From Nanobdellota archaeon (GTDB taxonomy: Archaea > Nanobdellota > Nanobdellia > Pacearchaeales > GW2011-AR1), in contig JAKADZ010000002.1 in the NCBI GenBank assembly GCA_021818475.1, positions 536 to 64,535 of the forward strand: 64,000 nucleotides of DNA, given 5' to 3'. A program made the position numbers and the translations under genes. The notes beneath the pieces were generated by a model. The model saw only the letters and a list, made by a program, of their open reading frames with translations, searched no databases and was not told the origin of the DNA. Below are positions 1 through 63,465 of the stretch, in pieces. Each line of letters opens with the position of its first letter. Position 1 is the stretch's first letter.

Positions 1-23
1 GGAAAGAAATTTCAAAATCTCAA

Positions 24-1142
24 ATGGGGAAAATAAACAGAATTGAATATGAAAATCCAGGAGTACTGACTCCTTATTTTAAATCTCATCCAGCTTATTT
101 TTCTGATTTTGTGGCTTTCCAGCATATGGAATTATGGTTAGACGGTTTATCATTAAAGGATGGAATTTTCTCATTTACAGAATCCAGAATACCTTTAATA
201 ATCAGCTGCAGGCTTGCAGGAAATCGCCAGAAGTTGGGGCCAATCCCTTTTTATCTCGGAAACATCACTTACAATATTTCAGACTTTAATACTTCAGAAA
301 GAATTTCATCAGAAGAAACAGTCATCAAGCCATTTATGACAAAAGGACTGCTGAAACTTTTTGCAGATGAAGGAATAAATTATGGAAATCAAAATTCTCT
401 GTCAATATCAATGCAAAATTCAGATAAAGGAAAATCATTTGAAGTAAGAATTGCAGATGATGAAAAAAAGGTTTATGGAAGATTATTGTTTAAAGCAAGA
501 AATAATTATGAAAATGGCTATGCTGAATCATTAAACTCCGGGGAAGAAAAAGCATTAAGAGAATTTACAAGTAAAAGATGGTTTGAGTTTAATAGAGAAG
601 AAAGTTTTTTGGGGTATGATGGAAATGCAATTGACTTTTCCAAAATTGATGCAACTTCTTTTATTGACGAGGCAAACGGATTCTCTCCAAAAAGAAAAAA
701 TTGGGACTGGATGATTTTTAGTAACAATAGTTTTGGTAATGATATCAGGTTAATCCTTGGAAAAAAATGCAGAAGGGCAGGATTTGATCAGGAAGAATAT
801 GGGCTAGCCAGTTTTTTTATAGACGGAAAATTATACAGAATAAAAGGAAGAGTTAACTTTAATTACGATGTGAATGACTTATCAAAACCATTGGAAGTTT
901 ATATAGATGGTGGAAAAGGCAATCAGGCGGAAATAAAAACAATTTCAGTTGCACCGTTTGTAGAAAAATCCACGCTTGATAAAAAAATAAGTTCAGTAAA
1001 AGTAAACCTGGACCTCCAAAGAGTAATAGCACGAACAATGATTAAAGGAGAAATAAACGGAAGAGAAATAAGCACAATGGGTATAGCTTCTTTTGAAAGC
1101 AATAAGGGAATGGAACGGGGAACAAAATATTTTAATGATTAA
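24..1142 (+). CDS. hypothetical protein (372 aa)
   Basis: Long ORF with only a short antisense competitor; no family motif recognised by eye. Confidence 0.5.
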   Translation: MGKINRIEYENPGVLTPYFKSHPAYFSDFVAFQHMELWLDGLSLKDGIFSFTESRIPLIISCRLAGNRQKLGPIPFYLGNITYNISDFNTSERISSEETVIKPFMTKGLLKLFADEGINYGNQNSLSISMQNSDKGKSFEVRIADDEKKVYGRLLFKARNNYENGYAESLNSGEEKALREFTSKRWFEFNREESFLGYDGNAIDFSKIDATSFIDEANGFSPKRKNWDWMIFSNNSFGNDIRLILGKKCRRAGFDQEEYGLASFFIDGKLYRIKGRVNFNYDVNDLSKPLEVYIDGGKGNQAEIKTISVAPFVEKSTLDKKISSVKVNLDLQRVIARTMIKGEINGREISTMGIASFESNKGMERGTKYFND

Positions 1143-1197
1143 TTCTTAAAATATAAAAACTCAATTTAACTTATTATTTTATGATAATTGAGGTGAA

Positions 1198-1345
1198 CAA
1201 TTTTGTGAATAGAAATTTTTCTCTTTTTAATAAGGGGAAGTTTTCACGAGTACAAAAAAATTTTCCGCTTGGGATGGGAGGGCGGGAATGACGAGTGAAA
1301 ACTTGAGCATGGAAAAGATAAATAAACGAAATTGTAAATTATTAT
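1198..1345 (+). repeat. mosaic intergenic repeat copy (gaatagaaa box, ttttcacgag box, G-rich core gggatgggagggcggg at 1271-1286)
   Basis: Same boxes recur in about 20 spacers of this window. Confidence 0.7.
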
Positions 1346-1349
1346 TGCA

Positions 1350-2036
1350 ATGAAAAAGGTGATTGTTATGAGTCTTGGCGGAAGCCTGATAATTCCGGAC
1401 AATGTCAATGTTAAATTCCTGAAAAATTTCAGAAAAACTATTTTGAAGAATACAGATAAATACAAATTTATAATTGTGTGCGGGGGAGGGAATATTGCAA
1501 GAAAATATATTTCTGCACTTAAAGAAATAAATGCAGATGAAAATCTTCAGAGTTTCGCAGGAATTTCGGCTACGAGGATGAATGCAAGATTTATGTCTTA
1601 CTTTTTCAATCAGGATCAGGAAGTAGGGATACCTCACAAAATGAAAGAACTGAAAAAATATGTAAGGAAATATAATTTTGTTTTTTGCGGGGCGCTTGAA
1701 TATAAACCGCATCAGACTTCAGATTCCACTGCAGCAGAAATTGCAAAAGCATTCAGATGCAATTTTATAAATTTAACCGATGTTTCAGGACTGCATGATA
1801 AAAATCCCAAAGAATTCAAAGATGCAAAATTTATTCCAAAAATTTCATGGAAAGATTTTAACAAAATGGCGAATAAAATAAAATTCAAGCCAGGGCAGCA
1901 TTTTGTCCTCGATCAGCATGCATCTAAAATGATAATGGAAAACAAAATAACTACTTACATTCTAGGAAAAAATATGAACTATTTAGATAACCTCCTGAAA
2001 GGAAAAAAGTTCAAAGGAACAATTATTGCTGAATAG
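1350..2036 (+). CDS. pyrH: UMP kinase, archaeal type (amino-acid-kinase fold)
   Basis: VMSLGGSLI start and IIVCGGGNIARKYI glycine-rich motif; about 226 aa, as in archaeal PyrH. Confidence 0.7.
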   Translation: MKKVIVMSLGGSLIIPDNVNVKFLKNFRKTILKNTDKYKFIIVCGGGNIARKYISALKEINADENLQSFAGISATRMNARFMSYFFNQDQEVGIPHKMKELKKYVRKYNFVFCGALEYKPHQTSDSTAAEIAKAFRCNFINLTDVSGLHDKNPKEFKDAKFIPKISWKDFNKMANKIKFKPGQHFVLDQHASKMIMENKITTYILGKNMNYLDNLLKGKKFKGTIIAE

Positions 2037-2532
2037 GGCTTGTATTTGATACTGCTTGTTTAGGTTTATTCCTGTTTTTTATTAGGAGATAAACAATTAA
2101 TGCAATAACAATAAAAATAATTATTCCGATAATTATCTGAAATGTTGTGCTGACAAAAAAGACTTCTTTATTTGAAGCAGTCTGAGAGGGAGAAGAGAAG
2201 TTATTCTGCTGAGTGGAAATATTATTAGAAGGAGTGGGGGAAGAGAAGTTATTCTGTATTTCAGAAGACGGAATGTTTTCCTGAGTAGGCGGAACAGACT
2301 GATTAGAAATATTTGAAGGAGAATTTAATGGAGGTGAAGGAATTGTTGTTGTAGGGTTAGAACAATCCTGCGGACAGGTTGATGCAGTTTCCCCTGGCTC
2401 ACAAATACCGTCGCCGCACATATTTTGAGTAGTCTGATTAAATGAACCCGCATCAAGACTTGATACTAATGGAGTTATAATTAAGAATATTAAAATTATT
2501 AATTCAATTGGGATTATTTTTATTTTTTTCAT
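2023..2532 (-). CDS. secreted S/T/P-rich protein with C-terminal membrane anchor
   Basis: N-terminal signal peptide, CGDGICEPGETASTCPQDC motif, low-complexity PSPT region, terminal TM helix; its start overlaps the stop of the upstream pilin-like gene. Confidence 0.6.
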   Translation of the reverse strand: MKKIKIIPIELIILIFLIITPLVSSLDAGSFNQTTQNMCGDGICEPGETASTCPQDCSNPTTTIPSPPLNSPSNISNQSVPPTQENIPSSEIQNNFSSPTPSNNISTQQNNFSSPSQTASNKEVFFVSTTFQIIIGIIIFIVIALIVYLLIKNRNKPKQAVSNTSPIQQ

Positions 2533-3689
2533 CTTATATATAAAATAACATTTGCTCTTTCATCATAAGTTTGACATGCACAACAGTGAGATGAAGACGG
2601 ACCTGCTTCACACCAACTATACCAAGCCCCATAAGACCCGCATGATTCACCGTGGCCATAATAGTTCTGATTAGACCACCCCCCATCTGGAGAAGAACAT
2701 CCTGAAGAACCCGTTGTTAAAATAGACCCCCATCCATCATTATAATTATACTTAACATAAAAAGTTTTTCCTGCATTAACATTATCATTCCCCCACTGAT
2801 TTGGATCCGATAAAAGATTATAAATATAAACATCAACAGGGTTTAGAGAATTATACCTGTATTGCTGTGTCCAGTGTCCTCTTGTTATTTTATCTCCGGA
2901 ATTTAAAATTGATTTTATAATTGAATCAGATAATTTAACTGTCGTTGCAGAGTTTGGGTCCAATACCGTTCCCACAGCATTAACATTCCAGCAATTGGAA
3001 GATGGAACTGCACCATTAAAAGAAGGATAATTTGGATTGTTTTCGGGACGGCATACTGCAGCTAAAGTCCATCCGCCCCCATCAGTAGTCATATCACAAT
3101 AAACCTGCATCAGATTATTTCCGTCAGGATTAATCCAGTAAATACCGTCTCCGCGTGAAGCACTCAAAAAACTTTTACAGGAAGTTCCGGGACTTGATTG
3201 GCTGTTAAGAGCATCAGAATTAGCTTTATAAAGGTCATAAGAATCAACTACATTTCCTGTTGTCTCCTGACCGTTTGAGGTAGCAATAGGAGCAATTGAA
3301 ATAGTTTTTATTCCAAATGGACCAAGGTCAGAATAAGGGATTGTAAATGTCTGAGTTCCGAGTTCCTGCAGCGAGGAGGGTTCTTTTATTACCTTGGAAT
3401 TTGTCCCGTCAGAAACAATAAAATTAATTGAGGTTAAATCTCCCTGCCCGGAATTTCGTTGAACTGTAACAGCAACATCCCCGTTAGGTTCAAGATTAAC
3501 ATTCTGCAATTTAAGACTGATGAACATTTGCCCAAATGAAGAACTTGCCTGCTGAGTTCCTGATTTTAGAATATTTGAAACAACAACCCAGACAACTCCG
3601 ATAGCGACGAGAGAAAGAACAATTATTATCAATGTAACAACAATGTCAGAAAGACCTTTTTTATTTCTCAGTTCTCCCCTTTTTTTCAT
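2529..3689 (-). CDS. pilin-like (class III signal peptide) surface protein with fibrinogen-related-like C-terminal domain
   Basis: KKGLSDIVVTLIIIVLSLVAIGVVWVV prepilin-type N-terminus; GIYWINPDG...VYCDMTTDGGGWT matches the fibrinogen C-domain hallmark. Confidence 0.7.
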   Translation of the reverse strand: MKKRGELRNKKGLSDIVVTLIIIVLSLVAIGVVWVVVSNILKSGTQQASSSFGQMFISLKLQNVNLEPNGDVAVTVQRNSGQGDLTSINFIVSDGTNSKVIKEPSSLQELGTQTFTIPYSDLGPFGIKTISIAPIATSNGQETTGNVVDSYDLYKANSDALNSQSSPGTSCKSFLSASRGDGIYWINPDGNNLMQVYCDMTTDGGGWTLAAVCRPENNPNYPSFNGAVPSSNCWNVNAVGTVLDPNSATTVKLSDSIIKSILNSGDKITRGHWTQQYRYNSLNPVDVYIYNLLSDPNQWGNDNVNAGKTFYVKYNYNDGWGSILTTGSSGCSSPDGGWSNQNYYGHGESCGSYGAWYSWCEAGPSSSHCCACQTYDERANVILYIR

Positions 3690-9114: not shown

Positions 9115-9639
9115 TTAAGAAATTATTGTTTGGTCTACAAATACTTTTGAATTTTCAAGAAATGATGCATTTTTTTCGTTTTTAACCGTGGTAAAAATTG
9201 CAGTAACATTTCTGCTTCTCAGGTTATTTATTATGTAATGTAAAAATTTAAGTACAGTGTCTTCAGGATGATAAATAAGCAAAGTTGAAAGTGAATCGAA
9301 GATTACACAGTCTATTTTATATTTCAGCAGTGCATTGCATATAACCAGACTCATTTGGGTTAGATTTTCTGCAGAAAAAACAAAACTCACCTGCTTCTCC
9401 TTTATAGAAACTGCTTCATTTGCACTCGAGACAGCATCTATAAAAAAAAATTTCTTCTTGTCAATTTTATTTTTTTCCATCCCTTTAATCAGCTGGAGAT
9501 AGCCTTTATTCAGGCTTACATAACCTATTCTGTTAAATTTTTTTGGCAGTTGTTTGACTAACTTAATCATAGAATCATTATATTTTTCACTTTCAAAAAT
9601 AACCAGTGCAATATCATTTTTATTAAATCCTTTTAACAT
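9115..9639 (-). CDS. KaiC/RecA-fold-like protein with no visible Walker A
   Basis: hhhhDSLSTLL Walker-B-like strand and KaiC-like layout, but no GxxGxGK[ST]; 1 nt downstream of the receiver gene. Confidence 0.5.
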   Translation of the reverse strand: MLKGFNKNDIALVIFESEKYNDSMIKLVKQLPKKFNRIGYVSLNKGYLQLIKGMEKNKIDKKKFFFIDAVSSANEAVSIKEKQVSFVFSAENLTQMSLVICNALLKYKIDCVIFDSLSTLLIYHPEDTVLKFLHYIINNLRSRNVTAIFTTVKNEKNASFLENSKVFVDQTIIS

Positions 9640-9640
9640 T

Positions 9641-10009
9641 TTATTTTAATATTTTTTTAATCCTCTTTTCAAAATCTTCCAGTTCTATCGGTTTAAGAAT
9701 GTAATCTGCAGGCTTTAATTTGTTCATCTCTTCTTTCCCGGATTCAACAACTTGTGCTACTGTAAGAAATACAATTTTTTGGTTTTTTGTTTTTGGATTT
9801 TTTCTTATTTCTTTTACACAATCTATTCCTGACATCCCGGGCATGAATATATCCATAATAACAAGGTCAAATTTTTCATTTTTAAGTAATCTTATTGCTT
9901 CTCTCCCGTCCCTTGCGAGAGCAGATTCAAAGCCCATTCTTTTTATTAAATAACTTATAGAATTACGAATATCTTCCTCATCATCAACAATCAGCACTCT
10001 TTTTTTCAT
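9641..10009 (-). CDS. single-domain response regulator (CheY-like receiver)
   Basis: VLIVDDEED, LVIMDIFMPGMSG (phospho-Asp) and ILKP conserved Lys. Confidence 0.85.
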   Translation of the reverse strand: MKKRVLIVDDEEDIRNSISYLIKRMGFESALARDGREAIRLLKNEKFDLVIMDIFMPGMSGIDCVKEIRKNPKTKNQKIVFLTVAQVVESGKEEMNKLKPADYILKPIELEDFEKRIKKILK

Positions 10010-10050
10010 TTCTGTTAATAGTTGGATTTTTTATAATTTAAATGTTGTGT

Positions 10051-12357
10051 TTATTGAATGGGAAGGGTAAAATAAAAAGTAGTATTTCCCTTAAATTTAC
10101 TCTCTGCCCAAATTTTTCCCCCATGCATCTCAATTATTGTTTTCGAAATATTCAGGCCTAATCCTGTCCCTTTCTTTTTTGTCTCAACTTCTCCAATCTG
10201 CGAAAAGGGTTTGAACAATTTTTCCATATCTTTCTTTTTAATTCCTATTCCATTGTCAGTTACCCGGACAAGAATATTTTTACCTTCTGCTTTTGTACTA
10301 ACTGTCACCCATGGATTATTTGAATTATTAAATTTGATGGCATTATCAATGAGATTGATTAAAACCTGATTAATTTTTTCTGCATCCATTTTTAATTTCG
10401 GCACTTTTCTCAAATTTAATTTTATGTCTACCTTATTTCCCTCCGCTAATGGCTTCATTACTTCGACGCTGTCCCGAATGATTTTATTAATATCTTCCTC
10501 CCGTTTAATTAAAGCCATATTCTGTTTCATCCTGCTCAGATTTAAAATTTGTTCAAGAAGTTGGTTTAATCTTTTTATATTTCTTGAAATAATCCCCAAA
10601 CTTTCCACTTGTCTTTGATTAAGTTTCCCGAGATCTCCCCGCTGAAGACTGTCTGCCTGTATTAAAATTGGAGTGATAGGGGTCTTAATCTCATGAGCAG
10701 TGAGATTTATGAAATCAGATTTCATTTTGTCGAGAGTCTCTAATTGCTTGTAAGAAAATTTAAGCTTCTTTACACTTTCTTCAAGTTCAGATTTGTTGTG
10801 CATTAATTCTTCAGTTCTTATTTTAACTTTTTCTTCTAGCTGCTCCTGATACATCTTCTTTTCGGTTATATCGTGGATTATTATCAAATCTGCATATTTT
10901 CCGCTGTAATTTATTTTTCTCGCATTTAATTCCGCAAATATTTTTTTATTCCCCCTGCCAACAAGGATAGTTTCATATTTTGACGGAACATTCTCTCCCC
11001 TCAATCTTTTTCTATAATTTAAAATTAATTCGGGAATTTTCTCTGGAGAGACAAACTGCATAAAAGATTTACCAATAATTTTTTTCAAATCTAACCCGCT
11101 CATTTTTTCAATTGCATGATTTGCATATTTGATTCTGGTATCCTGGACGATAATAATCCCGTCATTCGCTTTTTCTGAAACAGTCTTGTATTTTTCCTCA
11201 CTTTCTTTTAATTTGTCCTCTGCTCTTTTTCTTCTGTTTATATCTTCCGTATGAACCACAAAATATGCTACCTTTCCGTTTAGGTCTTTCACCACCGCGA
11301 TGCTTAATGCAACCCAGATTATTTCTCCATTTTTATGGATATATCTTTTTTCCAAATATCCATAATCTTTTTTTCCAGAAAGTAAATCCATTGTAAGATT
11401 TTTTGTCTTTTCAACATCCTCGGGATATGTTATCTGAAGGTATGCTTTTGTAAGCAGTTCTTCCTCAGAATACCCGGTAATCCTGCACAATGCTTTATTT
11501 ACCTGAAGCCATTTTCCATCAAGTGCAACCAAAGAAGTTCCTATACCGGAAAATTCGAAAATTTTTCTGAATCTCTCCTCGCTTTCTCTTAATCTGTCTT
11601 CTGTTTCTTTTCTTTTATTTATATTTTCAATGCGGAATAAAAAGTATTTGGGTTTATTATTCGAATCCTTTATCATTGCAATGTTTAGTGCAACCCATAT
11701 TACTCTTCTGTCCTTTGAAACAAATTTCTCTTCAAATGATTCATAATCTTCTTTCCCGGATAAAATTTTTAGAATTGCCTTTTTTGTTTGTTCAGTCTCT
11801 TCTGGAAAGATTAACTGATTGTATGTCTTTTTCAGAAGTTCTTTTTCTGAATATCCCATCATCCTGCACAGGGCTTTATTTACCTGCAAAAATTTTCCGT
11901 CCATTTTTACTATGGCAATTCCCAAAACTGAATGTTCGAAAATTTTTCTGAATCTCTCCTCGCTTTCTCTTAATTTTTCTTCTGCTTCTCTGTCTGCAGT
12001 GATATTTCTAATTCTGCACTGGACTAATTTTTTATAATCTACAGAGTAAACATTTCCTGTCAATTCTACTTCAATTTTCTCCCCGCTTTTTGTCTTTGCA
12101 GATAAACTTTTATAATGAACTTCTTTTTTGGCTTTTAGTTCTCTGAATATTTTTTCGCATCTTTCTTTTTCCCCAAAAAATTTTACATCCCACGGTTTTC
12201 TGCCAATCAAACCCTCCTTTTTATAACCTAAAATTTTAGTTACTGCAGGATTAACATTTTCTATCACACCGGTTTCATAATTTAATAAAAGAATTCCATC
12301 TTGAAAAGTTTCAAACAGTTTTTCAAATCTTAATTTATACTCCTCTTTTTCTTCCAC
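10051..12357 (-). CDS. cytoplasmic sensor histidine kinase with four PAS domains
   Basis: Four PAS-like repeats, H-box LTAHEIKTP, N-box NLIDNAIKF, G1 DNGIGI, G2 GTGLGL; no TM segment. Confidence 0.9.
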   Translation of the reverse strand: MEEKEEYKLRFEKLFETFQDGILLLNYETGVIENVNPAVTKILGYKKEGLIGRKPWDVKFFGEKERCEKIFRELKAKKEVHYKSLSAKTKSGEKIEVELTGNVYSVDYKKLVQCRIRNITADREAEEKLRESEERFRKIFEHSVLGIAIVKMDGKFLQVNKALCRMMGYSEKELLKKTYNQLIFPEETEQTKKAILKILSGKEDYESFEEKFVSKDRRVIWVALNIAMIKDSNNKPKYFLFRIENINKRKETEDRLRESEERFRKIFEFSGIGTSLVALDGKWLQVNKALCRITGYSEEELLTKAYLQITYPEDVEKTKNLTMDLLSGKKDYGYLEKRYIHKNGEIIWVALSIAVVKDLNGKVAYFVVHTEDINRRKRAEDKLKESEEKYKTVSEKANDGIIIVQDTRIKYANHAIEKMSGLDLKKIIGKSFMQFVSPEKIPELILNYRKRLRGENVPSKYETILVGRGNKKIFAELNARKINYSGKYADLIIIHDITEKKMYQEQLEEKVKIRTEELMHNKSELEESVKKLKFSYKQLETLDKMKSDFINLTAHEIKTPITPILIQADSLQRGDLGKLNQRQVESLGIISRNIKRLNQLLEQILNLSRMKQNMALIKREEDINKIIRDSVEVMKPLAEGNKVDIKLNLRKVPKLKMDAEKINQVLINLIDNAIKFNNSNNPWVTVSTKAEGKNILVRVTDNGIGIKKKDMEKLFKPFSQIGEVETKKKGTGLGLNISKTIIEMHGGKIWAESKFKGNTTFYFTLPIQ

Positions 12358-48885: not shown

Positions 48886-50874
48886 TTATAATTTATTATG
48901 CACTAAAATATTATCTGCATAATAATAATGATAATTATCTATTTCCAGATTATAAGTAATTTGGGGGTCATAAACTTTTTTAATACTTGTAATGATAACC
49001 TTTTCTCCAGAAGAATTGATTAAATAATCACCAACTTTAGCATTTCCGATTTCAGTAAGATGACCATTAACAATTATTGGATGATTAGGAGTTACTTCCA
49101 AATATCCATTAATTAATAGATAGTAATTTCCCATTTCATAAGGATTATGTTCAAATGTCTTTGAAACCCTTGAAATTACTTGTTTCTTAGTTAATTCATT
49201 ATAACTTACAACTTTATCCCCTACTTTTACATCTTCAATATTTTTCAAACTGCCATCTGCCATTAATACTTTAGTTCCAGCTAAGAAACAAGCTTGCACT
49301 CCAACAACATAAGCTTGACTATATTGAATTCCCCCGTTTCCTTTCTTTCCAGTACCAACACTTACCGTAGGATCAGGTGTGGTTGGGGTAGTAGTAGCAG
49401 AAGAGATTAAATTGGATTCGTAACTAGTTGGAACAGTGATAGCTGGAAGGACAACCCCCCCTAATGAAGCACCAGCCTGACTATTTAAAGAAGCATATGT
49501 AGTTGCATCAACTGAAGTATATTGTATGGTTCCATCAGGATTAGTACCTGTTGCTACCAGATATAGAGGGGATGAAACTGTAGTAGGACTTGTAGTAGTC
49601 GTGGTAGTCGTGGTAGTCGTGGTAGTCGTAGTAGTTGATGGAGTGGTGGAAGTTGCTGGAGTTGATGAAATACCTGTAGAACCTGGTGCAGCATTACATC
49701 CTGGTCCAGAAGTACAACCTTGATTAACTATTGGAGTATAGACAGTAACTACTTGTGGCGGGGTGTAGGATGGAATAACCAAAGGAGTTAGGGCGATAGT
49801 TGGTGTAGCAGAAGGTAGAATAGGGTCAATTAAGCCGACAGAGGGTAATTCAGAAATTGGAGTCGGAATAAATCCTGGTGTAGGCTGACCCCCGTAAGGA
49901 TTTACATAACCATAACTAGGGGTAGTAGTACTAACAGCAGGAAGGATAGCTCCATGAGGGGAATTTGTTCCTCCAGTTTGTGAAGAAGAGGGATTGTAGC
50001 AACCAGCTCCCAAATAACATGCTTTAACTGTTCCGGGAGTTGGGTCTCCAAAAAAATTATTATTACATGGAGCAGAAGGAGAAGTAGCAACTATTGTATT
50101 AAAATTATTATTCGCGCCGTATGAAACAAACCATGTTCCTGAAGGAATATTACAGGTTCCCCCCTCATCTGCGCATTTTGTGCATCCTGAAACCTGAATA
50201 TCACAAGGTGAATGAGACACATTCGGAGCAAATGTTATAGCAGCAAGAAATTCTCCTGAACTCCCAAGAGGAATAAAATAATCATTGTTAGGGTTAGAAT
50301 TATGCAGTTGGTAACAAACAGAATTCATCATAATTTTATTAGAATAATCCTGTGGTTTGAGTTCATAACAAAGCCCTCGAATTCCTGCTTTTTGACATTG
50401 AGCTTCAGTTCTAAAACCAGAACCGTGAATTGGGAGATGCACATCAGAATTGGGAGTAACAACTATTGAAGAAGTTACATCATTAAAATTATTATTGACA
50501 AAACAATCATCATTGGAAGATAAAGTCAGGAGATTTCCCTGAAAATTATCATCCGAATATAACTCAACAGTATAACCTGAACTAACTTTAATTGAAGATA
50601 AATCATTATCTTTTATTCCCAAAGCCTGCAACTGACTGAGAGAATAAGCTCCCGGATATAATCCAACCGAATATCCCCCATAACTACAGTCCTGATAAAC
50701 TGTTACAGGAGCTAATATAGATGTAACTGAAGTTGTAGTAGTTGAAGTTGAAGTTGACTTATCAACATTAGACCCAGGAGTAACTCCAGCAGCAGGAGAT
50801 ATAGCCAAAGGAACTAAAAAAAATAAGAATACAAAGCTGATAACTAAAACAGGCAGTATTTTTTGATTGTTCAT
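48886..50874 (-). CDS. secreted protein: signal peptide, beta-gamma-crystallin-like domain, Cys-rich region, S/T/P linker with Thr15 run, C-terminal Hint (intein-like) domain
   Basis: Hint at 48889-49290: CFLAGTKVLMADG (block A), TPNHP (block B), terminal ILVHN followed only by KL. Crystallin-like region: YQDCSYGGYS...DLSSIKV...LYSDDNFQG...VTSSIVV. Confidence 0.75.
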   Translation of the reverse strand: MNNQKILPVLVISFVFLFFLVPLAISPAAGVTPGSNVDKSTSTSTTTTSVTSILAPVTVYQDCSYGGYSVGLYPGAYSLSQLQALGIKDNDLSSIKVSSGYTVELYSDDNFQGNLLTLSSNDDCFVNNNFNDVTSSIVVTPNSDVHLPIHGSGFRTEAQCQKAGIRGLCYELKPQDYSNKIMMNSVCYQLHNSNPNNDYFIPLGSSGEFLAAITFAPNVSHSPCDIQVSGCTKCADEGGTCNIPSGTWFVSYGANNNFNTIVATSPSAPCNNNFFGDPTPGTVKACYLGAGCYNPSSSQTGGTNSPHGAILPAVSTTTPSYGYVNPYGGQPTPGFIPTPISELPSVGLIDPILPSATPTIALTPLVIPSYTPPQVVTVYTPIVNQGCTSGPGCNAAPGSTGISSTPATSTTPSTTTTTTTTTTTTTTTSPTTVSSPLYLVATGTNPDGTIQYTSVDATTYASLNSQAGASLGGVVLPAITVPTSYESNLISSATTTPTTPDPTVSVGTGKKGNGGIQYSQAYVVGVQACFLAGTKVLMADGSLKNIEDVKVGDKVVSYNELTKKQVISRVSKTFEHNPYEMGNYYLLINGYLEVTPNHPIIVNGHLTEIGNAKVGDYLINSSGEKVIITSIKKVYDPQITYNLEIDNYHYYYADNILVHNKL

Positions 50875-50875
50875 T

Positions 50876-51565
50876 TTATCCGCATTTAACCTTTAAATCA
50901 TCAATTTCTTTTTGTTGCTCTTTTATAGCTTCAACCAAAACTCCGACGAGATTTCCATATTCAACAGATTTTAATCCGGTAACTTCATTGGTTGAAACTA
51001 ATTGAGGATAAACTTTTTCAACATCTTGAGCAATTAAACCCACATCTGCTCTTCCGTCGGATTTCCAGTTAAATGAAACTCCCTGAAGTTGCTCTACTTT
51101 AGATAATGCATCCTGAAGTTCACTGATGTTAGTTTTTAATGATCTGTCTGAAGTATAAAGAAAAGCAGTGCCTGATATGTAATTAGCAGAAAGATTTCCG
51201 CCTATTGCAACATTTCCATTTATACTGGTAAGCAAATTCTTGCTCCAGTCAGTAGGTGCAATCAAAAGTTGTGTTCCTGTTTTAGGTTCAATATAAATTT
51301 GACCAGTTGGATTGTATAAACCCCACATTTCTAATTTTGTCTGTCCATAAGTTGAAGAGGAACCTGGGCAGGTTGAAGCGTCACATGTAGAAAATAATTC
51401 CTGATTAACACCTGCACTAAAATCAATTTGAGCCGCAGAATGTCCCGGATTTGGAACAGCTGCATAAACTCCTGCTGCAACTAATGCAATAATTCCCAAA
51501 GTAATTAAAAAGTAAATAGCTTTATTAGACAAACTAGTCTTTTTTAACCCCTTTTTATTCACCAT
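50876..51565 (-). CDS. signal-anchored protein with C-terminal peptidase-S74 (intramolecular chaperone) domain
   Basis: YTSDRSLKTNI (Ser-Lys dyad context), GVSFNWK, VGLIAQDVEKVYPQLV, VEYGNLVGVLVEAIKEQQKEIDDL. Confidence 0.7.
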   Translation of the reverse strand: MVNKKGLKKTSLSNKAIYFLITLGIIALVAAGVYAAVPNPGHSAAQIDFSAGVNQELFSTCDASTCPGSSSTYGQTKLEMWGLYNPTGQIYIEPKTGTQLLIAPTDWSKNLLTSINGNVAIGGNLSANYISGTAFLYTSDRSLKTNISELQDALSKVEQLQGVSFNWKSDGRADVGLIAQDVEKVYPQLVSTNEVTGLKSVEYGNLVGVLVEAIKEQQKEIDDLKVKCG

Positions 51566-51616
51566 ATCGAATATAAGAATGAAGGGTTTTTAAATATTTT
51601 TATTATTTTAAGAAAA

Positions 51617-52147
51617 TTAATTGAATTCTGTTTTCTTTTTCAGTTTTCTGAGGAGAAAAATTAAAATTACAATTAATAACAATGGAAGGAAATAAAAAAT
51701 TTTTCCGTATGAAATTTCGTCTGTTGTTTTTCCTGTTAAAGATAAAAATTTTTCTCCGTTGACATTCAGTTCAATCCATGCTCCAATTCCATATGAAGAA
51801 TTATTTAATTTGTACATCAAAGCACCATAATAATTCCCGCTGTTTTTTGAAGAAATGCAGATGGGATAAGTTCCTGATTTTATTTCTGAAGGAATCTGCG
51901 GATAAATCCCAAGGCTGTCCGAGGAAATTTTATAATCAATCAAATTTTTGCTGTTTTCATTGCTCCATTTTATTTCCCCGTTGAAAATGCGGTAATCATC
52001 TCCCAAAAGGGTAAAATTCCTGCAGACGATTTCATTTGTTTTTTCAGAAATTTTTATTGTTCCTGGGGAAATACCAAGAGTTAATGCAGAAAAAAAGTGA
52101 AGGAAAAAAATTATTAAAATAAAAGCGAAGAAAAATATTTTTTTCAT
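51617..52147 (-). CDS. secreted protein with C-terminal TM anchor (176 aa)
   Basis: Signal peptide, beta-rich body, terminal hydrophobic helix plus KKK. Confidence 0.5.
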   Translation of the reverse strand: MKKIFFFAFILIIFFLHFFSALTLGISPGTIKISEKTNEIVCRNFTLLGDDYRIFNGEIKWSNENSKNLIDYKISSDSLGIYPQIPSEIKSGTYPICISSKNSGNYYGALMYKLNNSSYGIGAWIELNVNGEKFLSLTGKTTDEISYGKIFYFLPLLLIVILIFLLRKLKKKTEFN

Positions 52148-52185
52148 CTAATCAGTTTTTTGAATTAATATTTAAAAATTTAGAT

Positions 52186-52692
52186 TCATGCAGGCATGAC
52201 CCAGAGAATTAAGTTTGTTGAAAGGTTTAATCCACTGGTTATTGTATCAGGGTAATCCGTCAAATCAAGTTTAATGCAGGAATTATATTGATCACCATCT
52301 CCTCCCCTGTAAGTGGTTGGGGGATTTAAAGTCGAAGAAGTCAAATTATGACTGCGATAATAAGTAACATTATGCCAGGTAGAACAATCATCATCTGTAG
52401 CAAATTCGAGATAATCAAAGATTTTATCTGCATTTTCTTCTAAAATCGGGCTCAGTTTTAAGTCTAAATCCCCGACATTTTTAATAGTGATATTTTTTGA
52501 AATAGTTTCGTAACCTGCAGTTGTTTCCCCAAGATTAATATTATTCGGAAAAATTTCTATCATCGCAGTTGGCTGGGAAATATTAACTGAAACTGTTAAA
52601 CTTGAATTGGTATATGTATCAGCGCTTCCGGATGAGCAAAAGTAAGTCATAGAGAAGAGTAAGAAAAAAATCACAACCCCTTTTTTATTCAT
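52186..52692 (-). CDS. secreted protein (168 aa)
   Basis: Signal peptide; ITIKNVGDLDLKL beta-sandwich-like pattern. Confidence 0.5.
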   Translation of the reverse strand: MNKKGVVIFFLLFSMTYFCSSGSADTYTNSSLTVSVNISQPTAMIEIFPNNINLGETTAGYETISKNITIKNVGDLDLKLSPILEENADKIFDYLEFATDDDCSTWHNVTYYRSHNLTSSTLNPPTTYRGGDGDQYNSCIKLDLTDYPDTITSGLNLSTNLILWVMPA

Positions 52693-62358: not shown

Positions 62359-63465
62359 ATGAATAATAAAAAGAGGATAAACAAAAAAGGTTTGTCAGAT
62401 ATTGTCGTCACATTAATAATAATTGTTCTCTCTCTTGTTGCCATCGGCGTTGTTTGGGTTGTTGTTTCTAATATTTTGAAATCGGGAACCCAACAGGCAA
62501 GTTTTCAGTTCGGAACTTTATTTTTAGATTTAAAAATTGATAAGGTTTTAGTTGACTCAAGCGGGAATTATCAGGTGACAGTCTCAAGGGGCGCCGGGCA
62601 GGGAGAGTTGACAGGAGTAGATTTTGTTTTTTCCGACGGAACAAATAGCCAGGTAGTAAAAGAAAGCACTTCAATTCAGGAATTAGGAAGCCAGACATTT
62701 ACTTTCTCTCCTTCCGATTTAGGGCAGGTTTCAATTGTTAAAGAAATTGACATTGCTCCTGTTTTAAATTCCGGGGGAACAGACCAGATTGGCAGCAAAG
62801 TTGATTCAAAGATATTTTTAGCTAAAGACATAATTCAAAATCTTGGGGGAGTTTCATGGTGGAGATTGAATGGAGATGCAAGTGATGAATTTGGAAATAA
62901 TCCAGGAACAATAGTAGGAAGTTTAAGTTTTGTTCAGGGAAGAGCAGGACAGGCAGCAAGTTTTGACGGAACCTACAAATATATTCGTGCAAGTTCAGTT
63001 AACAATTTGCCTTTAGGAAATTCTCCCAGAACGATGTTGGTTTGGATTAAACCTGCAGGTTACCCGGACCCTTCTTATAATGGAATAATAGCTTATGGAA
63101 CAATGGGATGCTATGGGGAAGGTTCAATGTTGTCTATTCAAAATAGTGGCAGACTTTCAATGGCATTTTGGTGTAATGATGCGTACCAAGCAGGAACTCC
63201 TGCCAACATTAATCAATGGAATCAGGTTGCATTTACTTATGACGGAGGAACAACAGTCAAATTTTATATGAATGGGGCATTTGCAGACACAGAATCAATT
63301 AGTTATGGACAACCGGCAGCAACGCTAAACGGTCCGTTGAGAATAGGCTGCACAGATGACCCCGGAAGATGTTTCAATGGGCAGATAGAAGATGCAATGA
63401 TTTTCAACAGAGCATTAACTGCAGGTCAGATACAAGCATTGTATAATTTAGATTTAAGCCAATAA
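62359..63465 (+). CDS. pilin-like (class III signal peptide) surface protein with LamG/concanavalin-like lectin domain
   Basis: N-terminus identical to that of 2529-3689; WWRLNGDASDEFGNN...WNQVAFTYDGGTTVKFYMNG...FNGQIEDAMIFNRALTAGQIQALY. Confidence 0.75.
   Translation: MNNKKRINKKGLSDIVVTLIIIVLSLVAIGVVWVVVSNILKSGTQQASFQFGTLFLDLKIDKVLVDSSGNYQVTVSRGAGQGELTGVDFVFSDGTNSQVVKESTSIQELGSQTFTFSPSDLGQVSIVKEIDIAPVLNSGGTDQIGSKVDSKIFLAKDIIQNLGGVSWWRLNGDASDEFGNNPGTIVGSLSFVQGRAGQAASFDGTYKYIRASSVNNLPLGNSPRTMLVWIKPAGYPDPSYNGIIAYGTMGCYGEGSMLSIQNSGRLSMAFWCNDAYQAGTPANINQWNQVAFTYDGGTTVKFYMNGAFADTESISYGQPAATLNGPLRIGCTDDPGRCFNGQIEDAMIFNRALTAGQIQALYNLDLSQ

Follow-up and report, generated by a model that had tools for sequence, protein, structure and literature searches.

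Two principles of type IV pilin design are already known, namely, paralogs with an identical hydrophobic (H) domain in Haloferax and modular pilins with lectin heads in bacteria. The H-domain of the Haloferax volcanii pilins PilA1-PilA6 is essential for assembly (Esquivel et al. 2013; review PMC4371748). The bacterial modular type IV pilins include PilB and PilC of Streptococcus sanguinis, which carry a vWA and a concanavalin A (ConA)-like lectin domain, respectively (Raynaud et al. 2021, PMC8179133; Shahin et al. 2023, PMC9934059), and PF13385/ConA-like lectin heads are among the commonest on such proteins in a survey described for bacteria only (PMC8179133). Two further archaeal systems are relevant: in the Sulfolobus bindosome, PibD processes binding proteins that carry a pilin-type signal, and the cell displays them on its surface (PMC3047682), and TafC, a subunit of the haloarchaeal Tat fimbriae, is associated with the filament and exported by the twin-arginine translocation (Tat) pathway but is not a class III pilin (PMC11821415). 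Here, we analyzed a stretch of 64,000 nucleotides (nt) of contig JAKADZ010000002.1 (Nanobdellota archaeon, assembly GCA_021818475.1), hereafter called the window, in which two open reading frames (ORFs), gene A (62359..63465, plus strand, 368 amino acids [aa]) and gene B (2529..3689, minus strand, 386 aa), encode modular pilin-like proteins. The results indicated that A and B are probably archaeal type IV pilin-like modular pilins of the Woese-/Pacearchaeota (DPANN), in which lectin-type heads are mounted on a shared assembly helix.

Alignment of the two proteins revealed 41 consecutive identical residues, NKKGLSDIVVTLIIIVLSLVAIGVVWVVVSNILKSGTQQAS (NKKGLSD...QQAS), which are N8-S48 of A (62380..62502, plus strand) and N9-S49 of B (3543..3665, minus strand) and hold the hydrophobic alpha-1 helix (residues 14 to 43 in the model of A). 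Over this segment 18 codons differ at 20 bases, and every change is synonymous. A preliminary description of this DNA had reported a shared N terminus of 39 aa with about 17 synonymous codon differences; we found exactly 17 differing codons (19 bases, all synonymous) in that 39-aa core and an identity that reaches 41 aa. By the Nei-Gojobori method, the proportion of synonymous differences in the helix segment is 0.60, corresponding to a synonymous divergence (dS) of ~1.2, and the nonsynonymous divergence (dN) is ~0, the lone nonsynonymous count being a path-averaging artifact of TTG/CTT. The next 102 aligned codons, which encode the stalk, show 50% identity, a dS of ~1.1, and a dN/dS ratio (omega) of ~0.44, in line with the earlier statement that the following ~90 aa are homologous but diverged. 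Thus, along the pair, a comparison that the preliminary description had proposed, omega rises from ~0 in the helix to ~0.44 in the stalk, and the ratio of nonsynonymous to synonymous counts changes from 0/19 to 83/41 (Fisher p = 1e-8). At full saturation, random draws from the codon usage of the window would leave 24.1 +/- 3.0 of the 41 codons different, and the observed 18 amount to ~75% of this value. These codon patterns argue that the helix identity of A and B has been kept by strong purifying selection and does not reflect a recent duplication. Apart from A and B, no ORF of the window carries this 41-aa N terminus.

Further copies of the helix were found outside the window. Two contigs, L007 and L008, match window positions 1 to 3689 exactly and extend leftward, and both end inside a third paralog, X (L007:13825-14238, minus strand), which runs leftward out of the window; its start codon lies ~135 bp left of position 1, and the right edge of its promoter region occupies 1..23 (minus strand). 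The n-region of X contains an 18-nt tandem duplication (KVNEVR twice). Contig L089 was considered as a continuation of X and rejected, because the ends share no overlap. The origin of A, B, and X from the same genome is proven. Four more paralogs occur in the same ENA samples as the window: P0056 (364 aa, fibrinogen-like head), P0078 (319 aa, unassigned head), P0001 (249 aa, Cys-rich head), and P0024 (160 aa, headless). Their contigs have a G+C content of 33 to 34% and carry nonoverlapping housekeeping genes. All seven genes lie in housekeeping contexts, with 35 to 39 of 39 helix residues identical. Homology among the paralogs begins at the ATG codon; shared promoters were therefore rejected, the upstream regions being unrelated save for a TATA-like TTTAAA box of each gene's own. 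A strong GGAGG Shine-Dalgarno sequence (AAAGGAGGTAAG) stands directly before the ATG of the headless P0024 (L006:9985-10000), and comparison of the upstream regions of the headed genes A, B, X, P0001, P0056, and P0078 revealed no strong Shine-Dalgarno sequence before their starts. Just upstream of P0001 (L005, ~9851-9950), there is a direct repeat of ~41 bp (TTCCTTTGAGAGAGGTTCAAGACTGATTACGACACCTAATC), with two copies 17 nt apart.

To compare the paralogs at the DNA level, nucleotide differences in the 117 helix-coding nt and in the next 240 nt were counted for each pair. B and X differ at 4 helix positions versus 107 downstream, B and P0056 at 8 versus 103, and B and P0078 at 8 versus 79 (Fisher p = 5e-18 to 2e-8 for the three contrasts). 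The pairs involving A are more divergent in the helix, with 19 versus 95 differences for A and B and 16 versus 61 for A and X; between A and the headless P0024, 37 of the 117 helix nt differ, although only 4 of 39 residues are changed. Different affinities meet within X, in which B-like helix DNA is joined to an A-type stalk with a sharp switch exactly after ...QQAS, and this junction is the same in the two independent assemblies (L007 = L008). Since its helix DNA is near-identical to that of B and its stalk is A-like, X is a mosaic, and the nucleotide pattern is the trace left by gene conversion or recombination that was limited to the helix segment. The preliminary description had attributed the helix identity to purifying selection and had set aside both recent duplication and gene conversion. 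Its case for selection over recent duplication held, given a dS of ~1.2 with a dN of ~0, but its dismissal of gene conversion did not survive the mosaic structure of X.

Comparison among species gave a consistent picture. In a second set, species C, represented by L009_0 and L026_0 (both from one metagenome-assembled genome [MAG]) and by P0052 and P0066, the helix differs from that of the window (A = B, 39/39) at 11 to 12 of 39 positions and matches at 27 to 28. Inside each species, by contrast, the paralogs have an identical or nearly identical helix (36 to 39 of 39). The stalks behave differently. That of gene B is 72% identical to the stalk of P0052 and 64% to that of L026_0, both of species C, and 70% to that of P0080, but only 49% to that of gene A; overall, it shares 64 to 76% identity with B-type stalks of other species and 49 to 50% with the gene A stalk. 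Stalks thus group by type across species, which places the A/B stalk split before the separation of the species, yet the helix follows the species. The same holds for headed and headless members of one genome, for which the median number of identical N-terminal residues is 32 of 36 at ~25% stalk identity, versus a mean of 21.3 N-terminal residues for between-genome pairs, only 0.7% of which reach 30 (Mann-Whitney p = 5e-5). The identical N-terminal residues within a genome often use different codons (15 to 21 per pair). A species-specific helix common to paralogs whose stalks diverged earlier indicates concerted evolution, and the codon data suggest that the helix identity arises from episodic gene conversion, with near-absolute purifying selection between the events.

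The heads have also moved. Head A is 80 to 81% identical to the heads of P0052, P0051, and P0048, and P0052 bears it on a B-type stalk; head B is 76% identical to that of P0080. Species C has the fibrinogen-like head on a stalk of the A type (L009_0 and P0066), the reverse of the arrangement in the window. The same combination, an A-type stalk with a fibrinogen-like head, was found in P0077 of the relative GCA_040961665.1, which is syntenic to B and lies between the genes for RNase P p30 and an amino-acid kinase, adjoining PheRS. Within one MAG, L015_0 and L019_0 have stalks that are 95% identical and different heads. By these alignments, the stalk and head types are common to the species and have been swapped between them.

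In MAG JAPLXZ, several copies have the same DNA sequence and interrupt the contigs. Separately, we noticed that L034, L036, L063, L064, and L071 (MAG JAPLXZ01), as well as L007/L008, end within or just after the helix-coding segment. Because the helix-segment repeat breaks short-read assemblies, paralog numbers in MAGs are underestimates, and pilin repertoires are under-counted in such genomes.

The pilin character of A and B was then assessed. Gene A encodes, in order, a class III-type signal, a helix, an Ig-like stalk, and a LamG head, and gene B combines the helix of gene A with a B-type stalk and a fibrinogen/intelectin-like head. Both N termini are of the class III type (A, MNNKKRINKKG/LSD; B, MKKRGELRNKKG/LSD), with a basic n-region and K-G at -2/-1, followed by a hydrophobic domain. 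Prepilin-peptidase cleavage is predicted after G11 in A (KG/LS; n-region at 62359..62391, plus strand) and after G12 in B, and neither G(-1) nor S(+2) varies in alignments of 13, 30, and 36 family members. An AlphaFold2 model of full-length A, built on a 36-row alignment with a mean predicted local distance difference test (pLDDT) score of 84, contains a disordered basic n-region, a helix at residues 14 to 43, a beta-sandwich at 58 to 152, a short linker helix at 155 to 161 between stalk and head, and a jelly roll at 164 to 349. A separate model of the stalk (pLDDT 84) yielded a long helix (12 to 55) and an Ig-like sandwich, and the N-terminal helix directly after the KG/LS site has pLDDT values of 80 to 94 across the two models. 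The stalk of A (aa 56 to 152; 62524..62814, plus strand) is predicted to be the Ig-like globular module of a pilin and is designated A-type (FQFGTLF...); that of B (aa 50 to 152; 3234..3542, minus strand) is B-type (SSFGQMF...). Furthermore, the gene A stalk aligns over its whole length with headless pilins of ~150 aa that have the family N terminus. An ordinary Sec signal or transmembrane anchor was considered for the N terminus and is disfavored by the invariant KG/LS ahead of the helix and by the headless homologs. The view of the preliminary description that both genes are pilin-like is thus borne out by the class III-type KG/LS site, the hydrophobic helix that follows it, and the pilin-sized stalk.

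The two heads are unlike each other. Head A (aa 164 to 368; 62848..63462, plus strand) matches Pfam Laminin_G_3 (PF13385) at E = 4e-25 over aa 203 to 359 and model positions 1 to 151 of 151, with 89.1 bits against a cutoff of 27.6. Its predicted structure, a jelly roll, matches in the PDB (Foldseek) carbohydrate-binding domain 4 of AbnA (5hon_A), with a template-modeling (TM) score of 0.76, and further structural matches include clostridial neurotoxin Hc and trans-sialidase lectin domains. By profile and by model, head A therefore falls within the LamG/concanavalin A-like lectin-glucanase superfamily, and sugar binding is a prediction for it. NCBIfam TafC was examined as an alternative assignment for gene A and rejected, since it covers the LamG region only (aa 278 to 363) and scores 32.5 against a cutoff of 410. 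Head B (aa 163 to 386; 2532..3203, minus strand) matches the NCBIfam GGGWT_bact fibrinogen-like model (NF040941) at E = 1e-15 (57.5 against a cutoff of 30) and Pfam Fibrinogen_C in part (E = 7e-6; positions 13 to 45 of 221; 26.4 bits against a cutoff of 22). A phmmer search of the PDB retrieved intelectins/XEEL, FIBCD1, and the fibrinogen-related domain (FReD) of tenascin at E = 3.5e-6 to 5e-4. This similarity is limited to the N-terminal subdomain, aa 170 to 218 (nt 3036-3182, minus strand), which holds the fibrinogen-related YCDMTTDGGGWT motif; a match to a whole FReD including the P subdomain was not obtained. BLASTP detected no similarity between the two heads (E = 0.48). Thus, the heads are unrelated, one fibrinogen-like and the other LamG/concanavalin-like, as had been proposed before.

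When 1.84 billion cluster representatives were searched with a profile, the family proved to be large: 4,532 clusters were retrieved at E <= 1e-3 and 2,085 at E <= 1e-10, and no model in the Pfam or NCBIfam library covers it. The family is restricted to Woese-/Pacearchaeota; relatives of A and B come from MAGs labeled Woesearchaeota, Pacearchaeota, or Nanoarchaeota, and the genome of the window is absent from the GTDB representatives searched, among which the closest match is 68% identical. With the stalk as a query, mainly headless proteins of 145 to 170 aa were returned (hundreds), which have the same N terminus, 2 to 4 cysteines, and a CSQTxxF C terminus and match ordinary archaeal pilins in size and shape. 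From 80 loci of GTDB genomes, 75 ORFs were taken. Headed members account for 27 of these (270 to 890 aa) and carry at least 6 head types, including LamG_3, Fibrinogen_C, DUF4215/Cys-rich, CBM_4_9, and unassigned domains; the others are mostly headless (~145 to 180 aa), besides a few fragments cut by contig ends. Since the stalk is homologous to headless pilins and the heads vary within the family, we reasoned that A and B each represent a pilin module onto which a head was grafted. The cassette architecture suggested in the preliminary description, with one assembly module and exchangeable heads, is therefore a property of the family, in which LamG, fibrinogen-like, DUF4215/Cys-rich, and CBM heads occur on one pilin module.

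Genes for an assembly machinery were searched for by motif scans for the T2SSE Walker A and the A24 GxGD motifs in the window, in the contigs attributed to the source organism, and at ~160 family loci. JGI contig L142 carries a Peptidase_A24 gene (Pfam E = 1.2e-10) at a distance of 1.3 kb from a LamG-headed member of 629 aa. Used as a query, this peptidase gave 1,932 hits at E <= 0.001, the best 120 of which are ~280 aa long and at least 58% identical; the few hits with a named source among those 120 are an "A24 family peptidase [Candidatus Pacearchaeota archaeon]" or a "Preflagellin peptidase [uncultured archaeon]." A small gene (MLNKRGQGLQ...) precedes the peptidase on L142 and is homologous to the small class III-like genes of the relative GCA_040961665.1. 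In that relative, a single locus of JBFOMY010000054.1 (L172:3-10846) encodes a T2SSE-family ATPase with a deviant Walker A motif (AGTRSSGKSS), a polytopic membrane protein of 720 aa that has no Pfam match and is probably the platform protein, seven small proteins of a class III-like type, and the A24 peptidase P0196. The locus and the positional ortholog of B lie ~148 kb apart on the same contig of 326,912 bp. In MAG JBDRGM, a LamG-headed member lies within a run of six class III-like genes. Other motif matches were discarded: those to T2SSE in L090/L091 are ABC transporters, and those to GxGD in L092/L094 lie inside pilin stalks. The preliminary description had suggested looking elsewhere for a prepilin peptidase and an assembly ATPase; both turned up in relatives (A24 and T2SSE), but neither was found in ~150 kb of the source organism.

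These results suggest how the proteins might work. They would be synthesized with a signal of the class III type, in which KG/LS follows a basic n-region, and an A24 prepilin peptidase would cut after the glycine. The cut would expose a hydrophobic alpha-helix of ~30 residues as the assembly element, which would take its place in the packed core of a type IV filament. The helix is common to all paralogs, including the headless protein of ~160 aa with a strong ribosome-binding site, which resembles a major pilin; with the same helix in all, one machinery and one filament core could take any of them. The Ig-like stalk and the short linker would then present the lectin-type head at the C terminus, which is LamG in A, fibrinogen/intelectin-like in B, and of other types in further paralogs. 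Hosts or substrates may be bound by these heads through their glycans or surface proteins. The repertoire would evolve as three modules, in which episodic gene conversion homogenizes the helix copies of one genome and very strong purifying selection then keeps them fixed, the stalks represent the older types A and B, and the heads are exchanged between stalks by recombination. A bolder proposal, which seems possible but doubtful to us, is combinatorial recognition of hosts or substrates, whereby the core helix of a single filament scaffold would serve as a species-specific compatibility "barcode," kept uniform by conversion and selection, and recombination would pass lectin heads from a common library among stalks and species. 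Such an exchange may be likened to that of receptor-binding proteins among phages. If this proposal were true, the genes would be the long-sought attachment determinants of uncultured episymbionts, and the helix variant would decide which subunits assemble together.

Several observations weigh against the interpretation as pilins. In a Foldseek search of the PDB with the stalk model, the only whole-length match was a pilus subunit of S. solfataricus (Saccharolobus) (6w8x), which taken by itself favors a pilin, but the match is weak (rank 2, E = 5e-3, 150 columns, TM score of ~0.3), the remaining matches being generic FN3/Ig domains. A profile of the stalk found no solved pilin among the PDB sequences, only chance matches. 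Pfam Pilin_N (PF07790) does not match A, B, P0024, or P0001, although small neighboring genes in L014 approach it (E ~0.01, under the cutoff), and of the NCBIfam pilin models, none is matched, the best being UpsA with E = 0.1 only. Neither the 64-kb window nor ~90 kb of further contigs attributed to the source organism contains a peptidase, ATPase, or platform gene, tblastn found no copy of the L142 peptidase in the source organism's contigs examined, and the flanks of the ~160 family loci lack such genes, apart from L142. The small pilin-like genes in the machinery locus of the relative differ in their N termini from the A/B family. The origin of P0001, P0024, P0056, and P0078 from the genome of A and B is probable rather than proven. 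Finally, according to a published preprint, DPANN genomes lack type IV pilus components; for some DPANN, type IV filament systems have been reported in recent surveys. As for the distance between family loci and machinery genes, which is general in the family, it matches the situation of the Haloferax PilA1-PilA6 genes.

Much of this would suit the main alternative, membrane-anchored surface lectins that never polymerize. Their helix would be a signal anchor, or a cleaved class III signal left in the membrane, conserved owing to a common membrane partner or processing enzyme, and stalk and head would project from the cell surface. The near-absence of assembly genes beside the family loci and the failure of the curated pilin models both speak for such proteins, as do the documented binding proteins that carry class III signals outside pili (PMC3047682), a faint match to NCBIfam BasC (E = 0.98), and the reports that membrane-associated Haloferax pilins aid adhesion. 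However, most family members are headless proteins of ~150 aa with the classic size and shape of pilins, which would be purposeless as mere anchors; the constraint on the helix, identical at a dS of ~1.2, species specific, and homogenized, exceeds what a generic transmembrane anchor needs; and relatives encode a full locus with ATPase, platform, and peptidase. We thus regard anchored lectins as unlikely and favor the reading of A and B as modular pilins. Two other explanations of the uniform helix were considered. If A and B were old duplicates in which selection alone preserved a helix that never changed, near-saturated synonymous divergence with no amino acid change is what one would see between them, but the helix did change, as its 11 to 12 replaced residues relative to species C demonstrate, and yet the paralogs within each species carry one variant. 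Moreover, the helix DNA of X, P0056, and P0078 lies within 3 to 8% of that of B, whereas the divergence immediately downstream is 33 to 45%, with a sharp breakpoint, and assembly chimeras are an improbable source of this pattern because the X junction is identical in two independent assemblies. Selection without any part for gene conversion is contradicted by these data and, in our view, very improbable. The opposite extreme, recent duplication or neutral homogenization without functional constraint, agrees with the freshly homogenized copies, such as B and X and the DNA-identical copies in MAG JAPLXZ. It is contradicted for the A-B pair by 18 differing codons of 41 with no residue changed and by the contrast in omega between helix and stalk, and the A-P0024 comparison speaks against it as well, so that we give it hardly any credence. 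Conversion and selection acting together on the modular pilins remain our preferred explanation of the uniform helix.

The window also carries genes for MCM, RFC, a family B DNA polymerase, FEN1, TBP, an ATP-dependent DNA ligase, FtsZ, and archaeal ribosomal proteins, and has a G+C content of 33%; together with the MAG labels of the relatives of A and B, these genes place the organism in the Woese-/Pacearchaeota group of DPANN. An ORF of 169 aa (2023..2532, minus strand) overlaps the stop codon of gene B by 4 nt. It has no significant Pfam family and encodes a signal peptide, a Cys-rich CGDGICEPGE...C motif, a long S/T/P/N-rich linker, and a C-terminal transmembrane anchor, and it has no counterpart at the syntenic position in the relative GCA_040961665.1. 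The ORF is possibly cotranscribed with gene B, and a link to the pilins is conjectural. A few kilobases from gene B (9115-12357, minus strand) are genes for a histidine kinase rich in PAS domains (768 aa), a response regulator, and a protein with a KaiC-like ATPase domain. A run at 48886-52692 (minus strand) encodes four proteins that are secreted or located in the membrane: one of 662 aa combines a Thr-rich linker with a PT-HINT domain at its C terminus (E = 3e-13), one of 229 aa has a hydrophobic segment at its N terminus as well as an intramolecular-chaperone domain, Peptidase_S74 (E = 9e-18), and the other two are small, with a signal peptide and without a family. Contig L005 encodes a protein of more than 1,600 aa that also has an S74 domain. 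The Peptidase_S74 domain is typical of phage tail fibers and is known, too, as a head on bacterial modular pilins.

Woese-/Pacearchaeota are abundant and uncultured, have tiny genomes, and are thought to live attached to hosts. The repertoire of lectin-headed paralogs in each genome supplies concrete candidates for attachment and host specificity. In addition, the family is a clean natural example of evolution by three modules, in which synonymous sites separate selection from gene conversion.

How, then, do A and B compare with the systems described above? Like the Haloferax PilA1-PilA6 pilins, which are scattered away from pilB/pilC, the paralogs are dispersed and combine a near-identical hydrophobic H-domain with divergent C-terminal parts. 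Unlike them, the A/B family belongs to DPANN, adds large recognizable domains of the LamG, fibrinogen-like, and other types after a complete pilin module, and exhibits species-specific helix variants under codon-level selection and gene conversion; here the Haloferax proteins were compared by description and the A/B family is known from sequence. With the bacterial modular pilins, A and B share the order of an N-terminal pilin module, a short linker, and a C-terminal domain that is not specific to pilus biology, and bacterial N_methyl+LamG_3 proteins indeed appeared among the LamG matches (P0129 and P0137). They differ in that their signal is of the archaeal class III type without the IPR012902 N-methylation motif (Pfam N_methyl is not matched by the N terminus of either A or B), in that the pilin module is an Ig-like sandwich and not an alpha-beta roll, and in that each genome has many paralogs, whose helix is identical and whose heads are shuffled. 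With an archaeal-type signal and no N_methyl match, A and B fall outside the signature of bacterial modular pilins, though their workings would be the same. The Sulfolobus bindosome is more distant, since its proteins are solute-binding proteins of ABC transporters with a dedicated Bas system, whereas A and B have lectin-type heads and a pilin-sized stalk homologous to headless pilins. With TafC, gene A shares a LamG-like region, and the resemblance is limited to the LamG fold. What is new, then, is the lineage and the size of an unannotated family, the combination of the two known principles in one set of proteins, and the codon-level demonstration of a helix that evolves in concert beneath shuffled stalks and heads.

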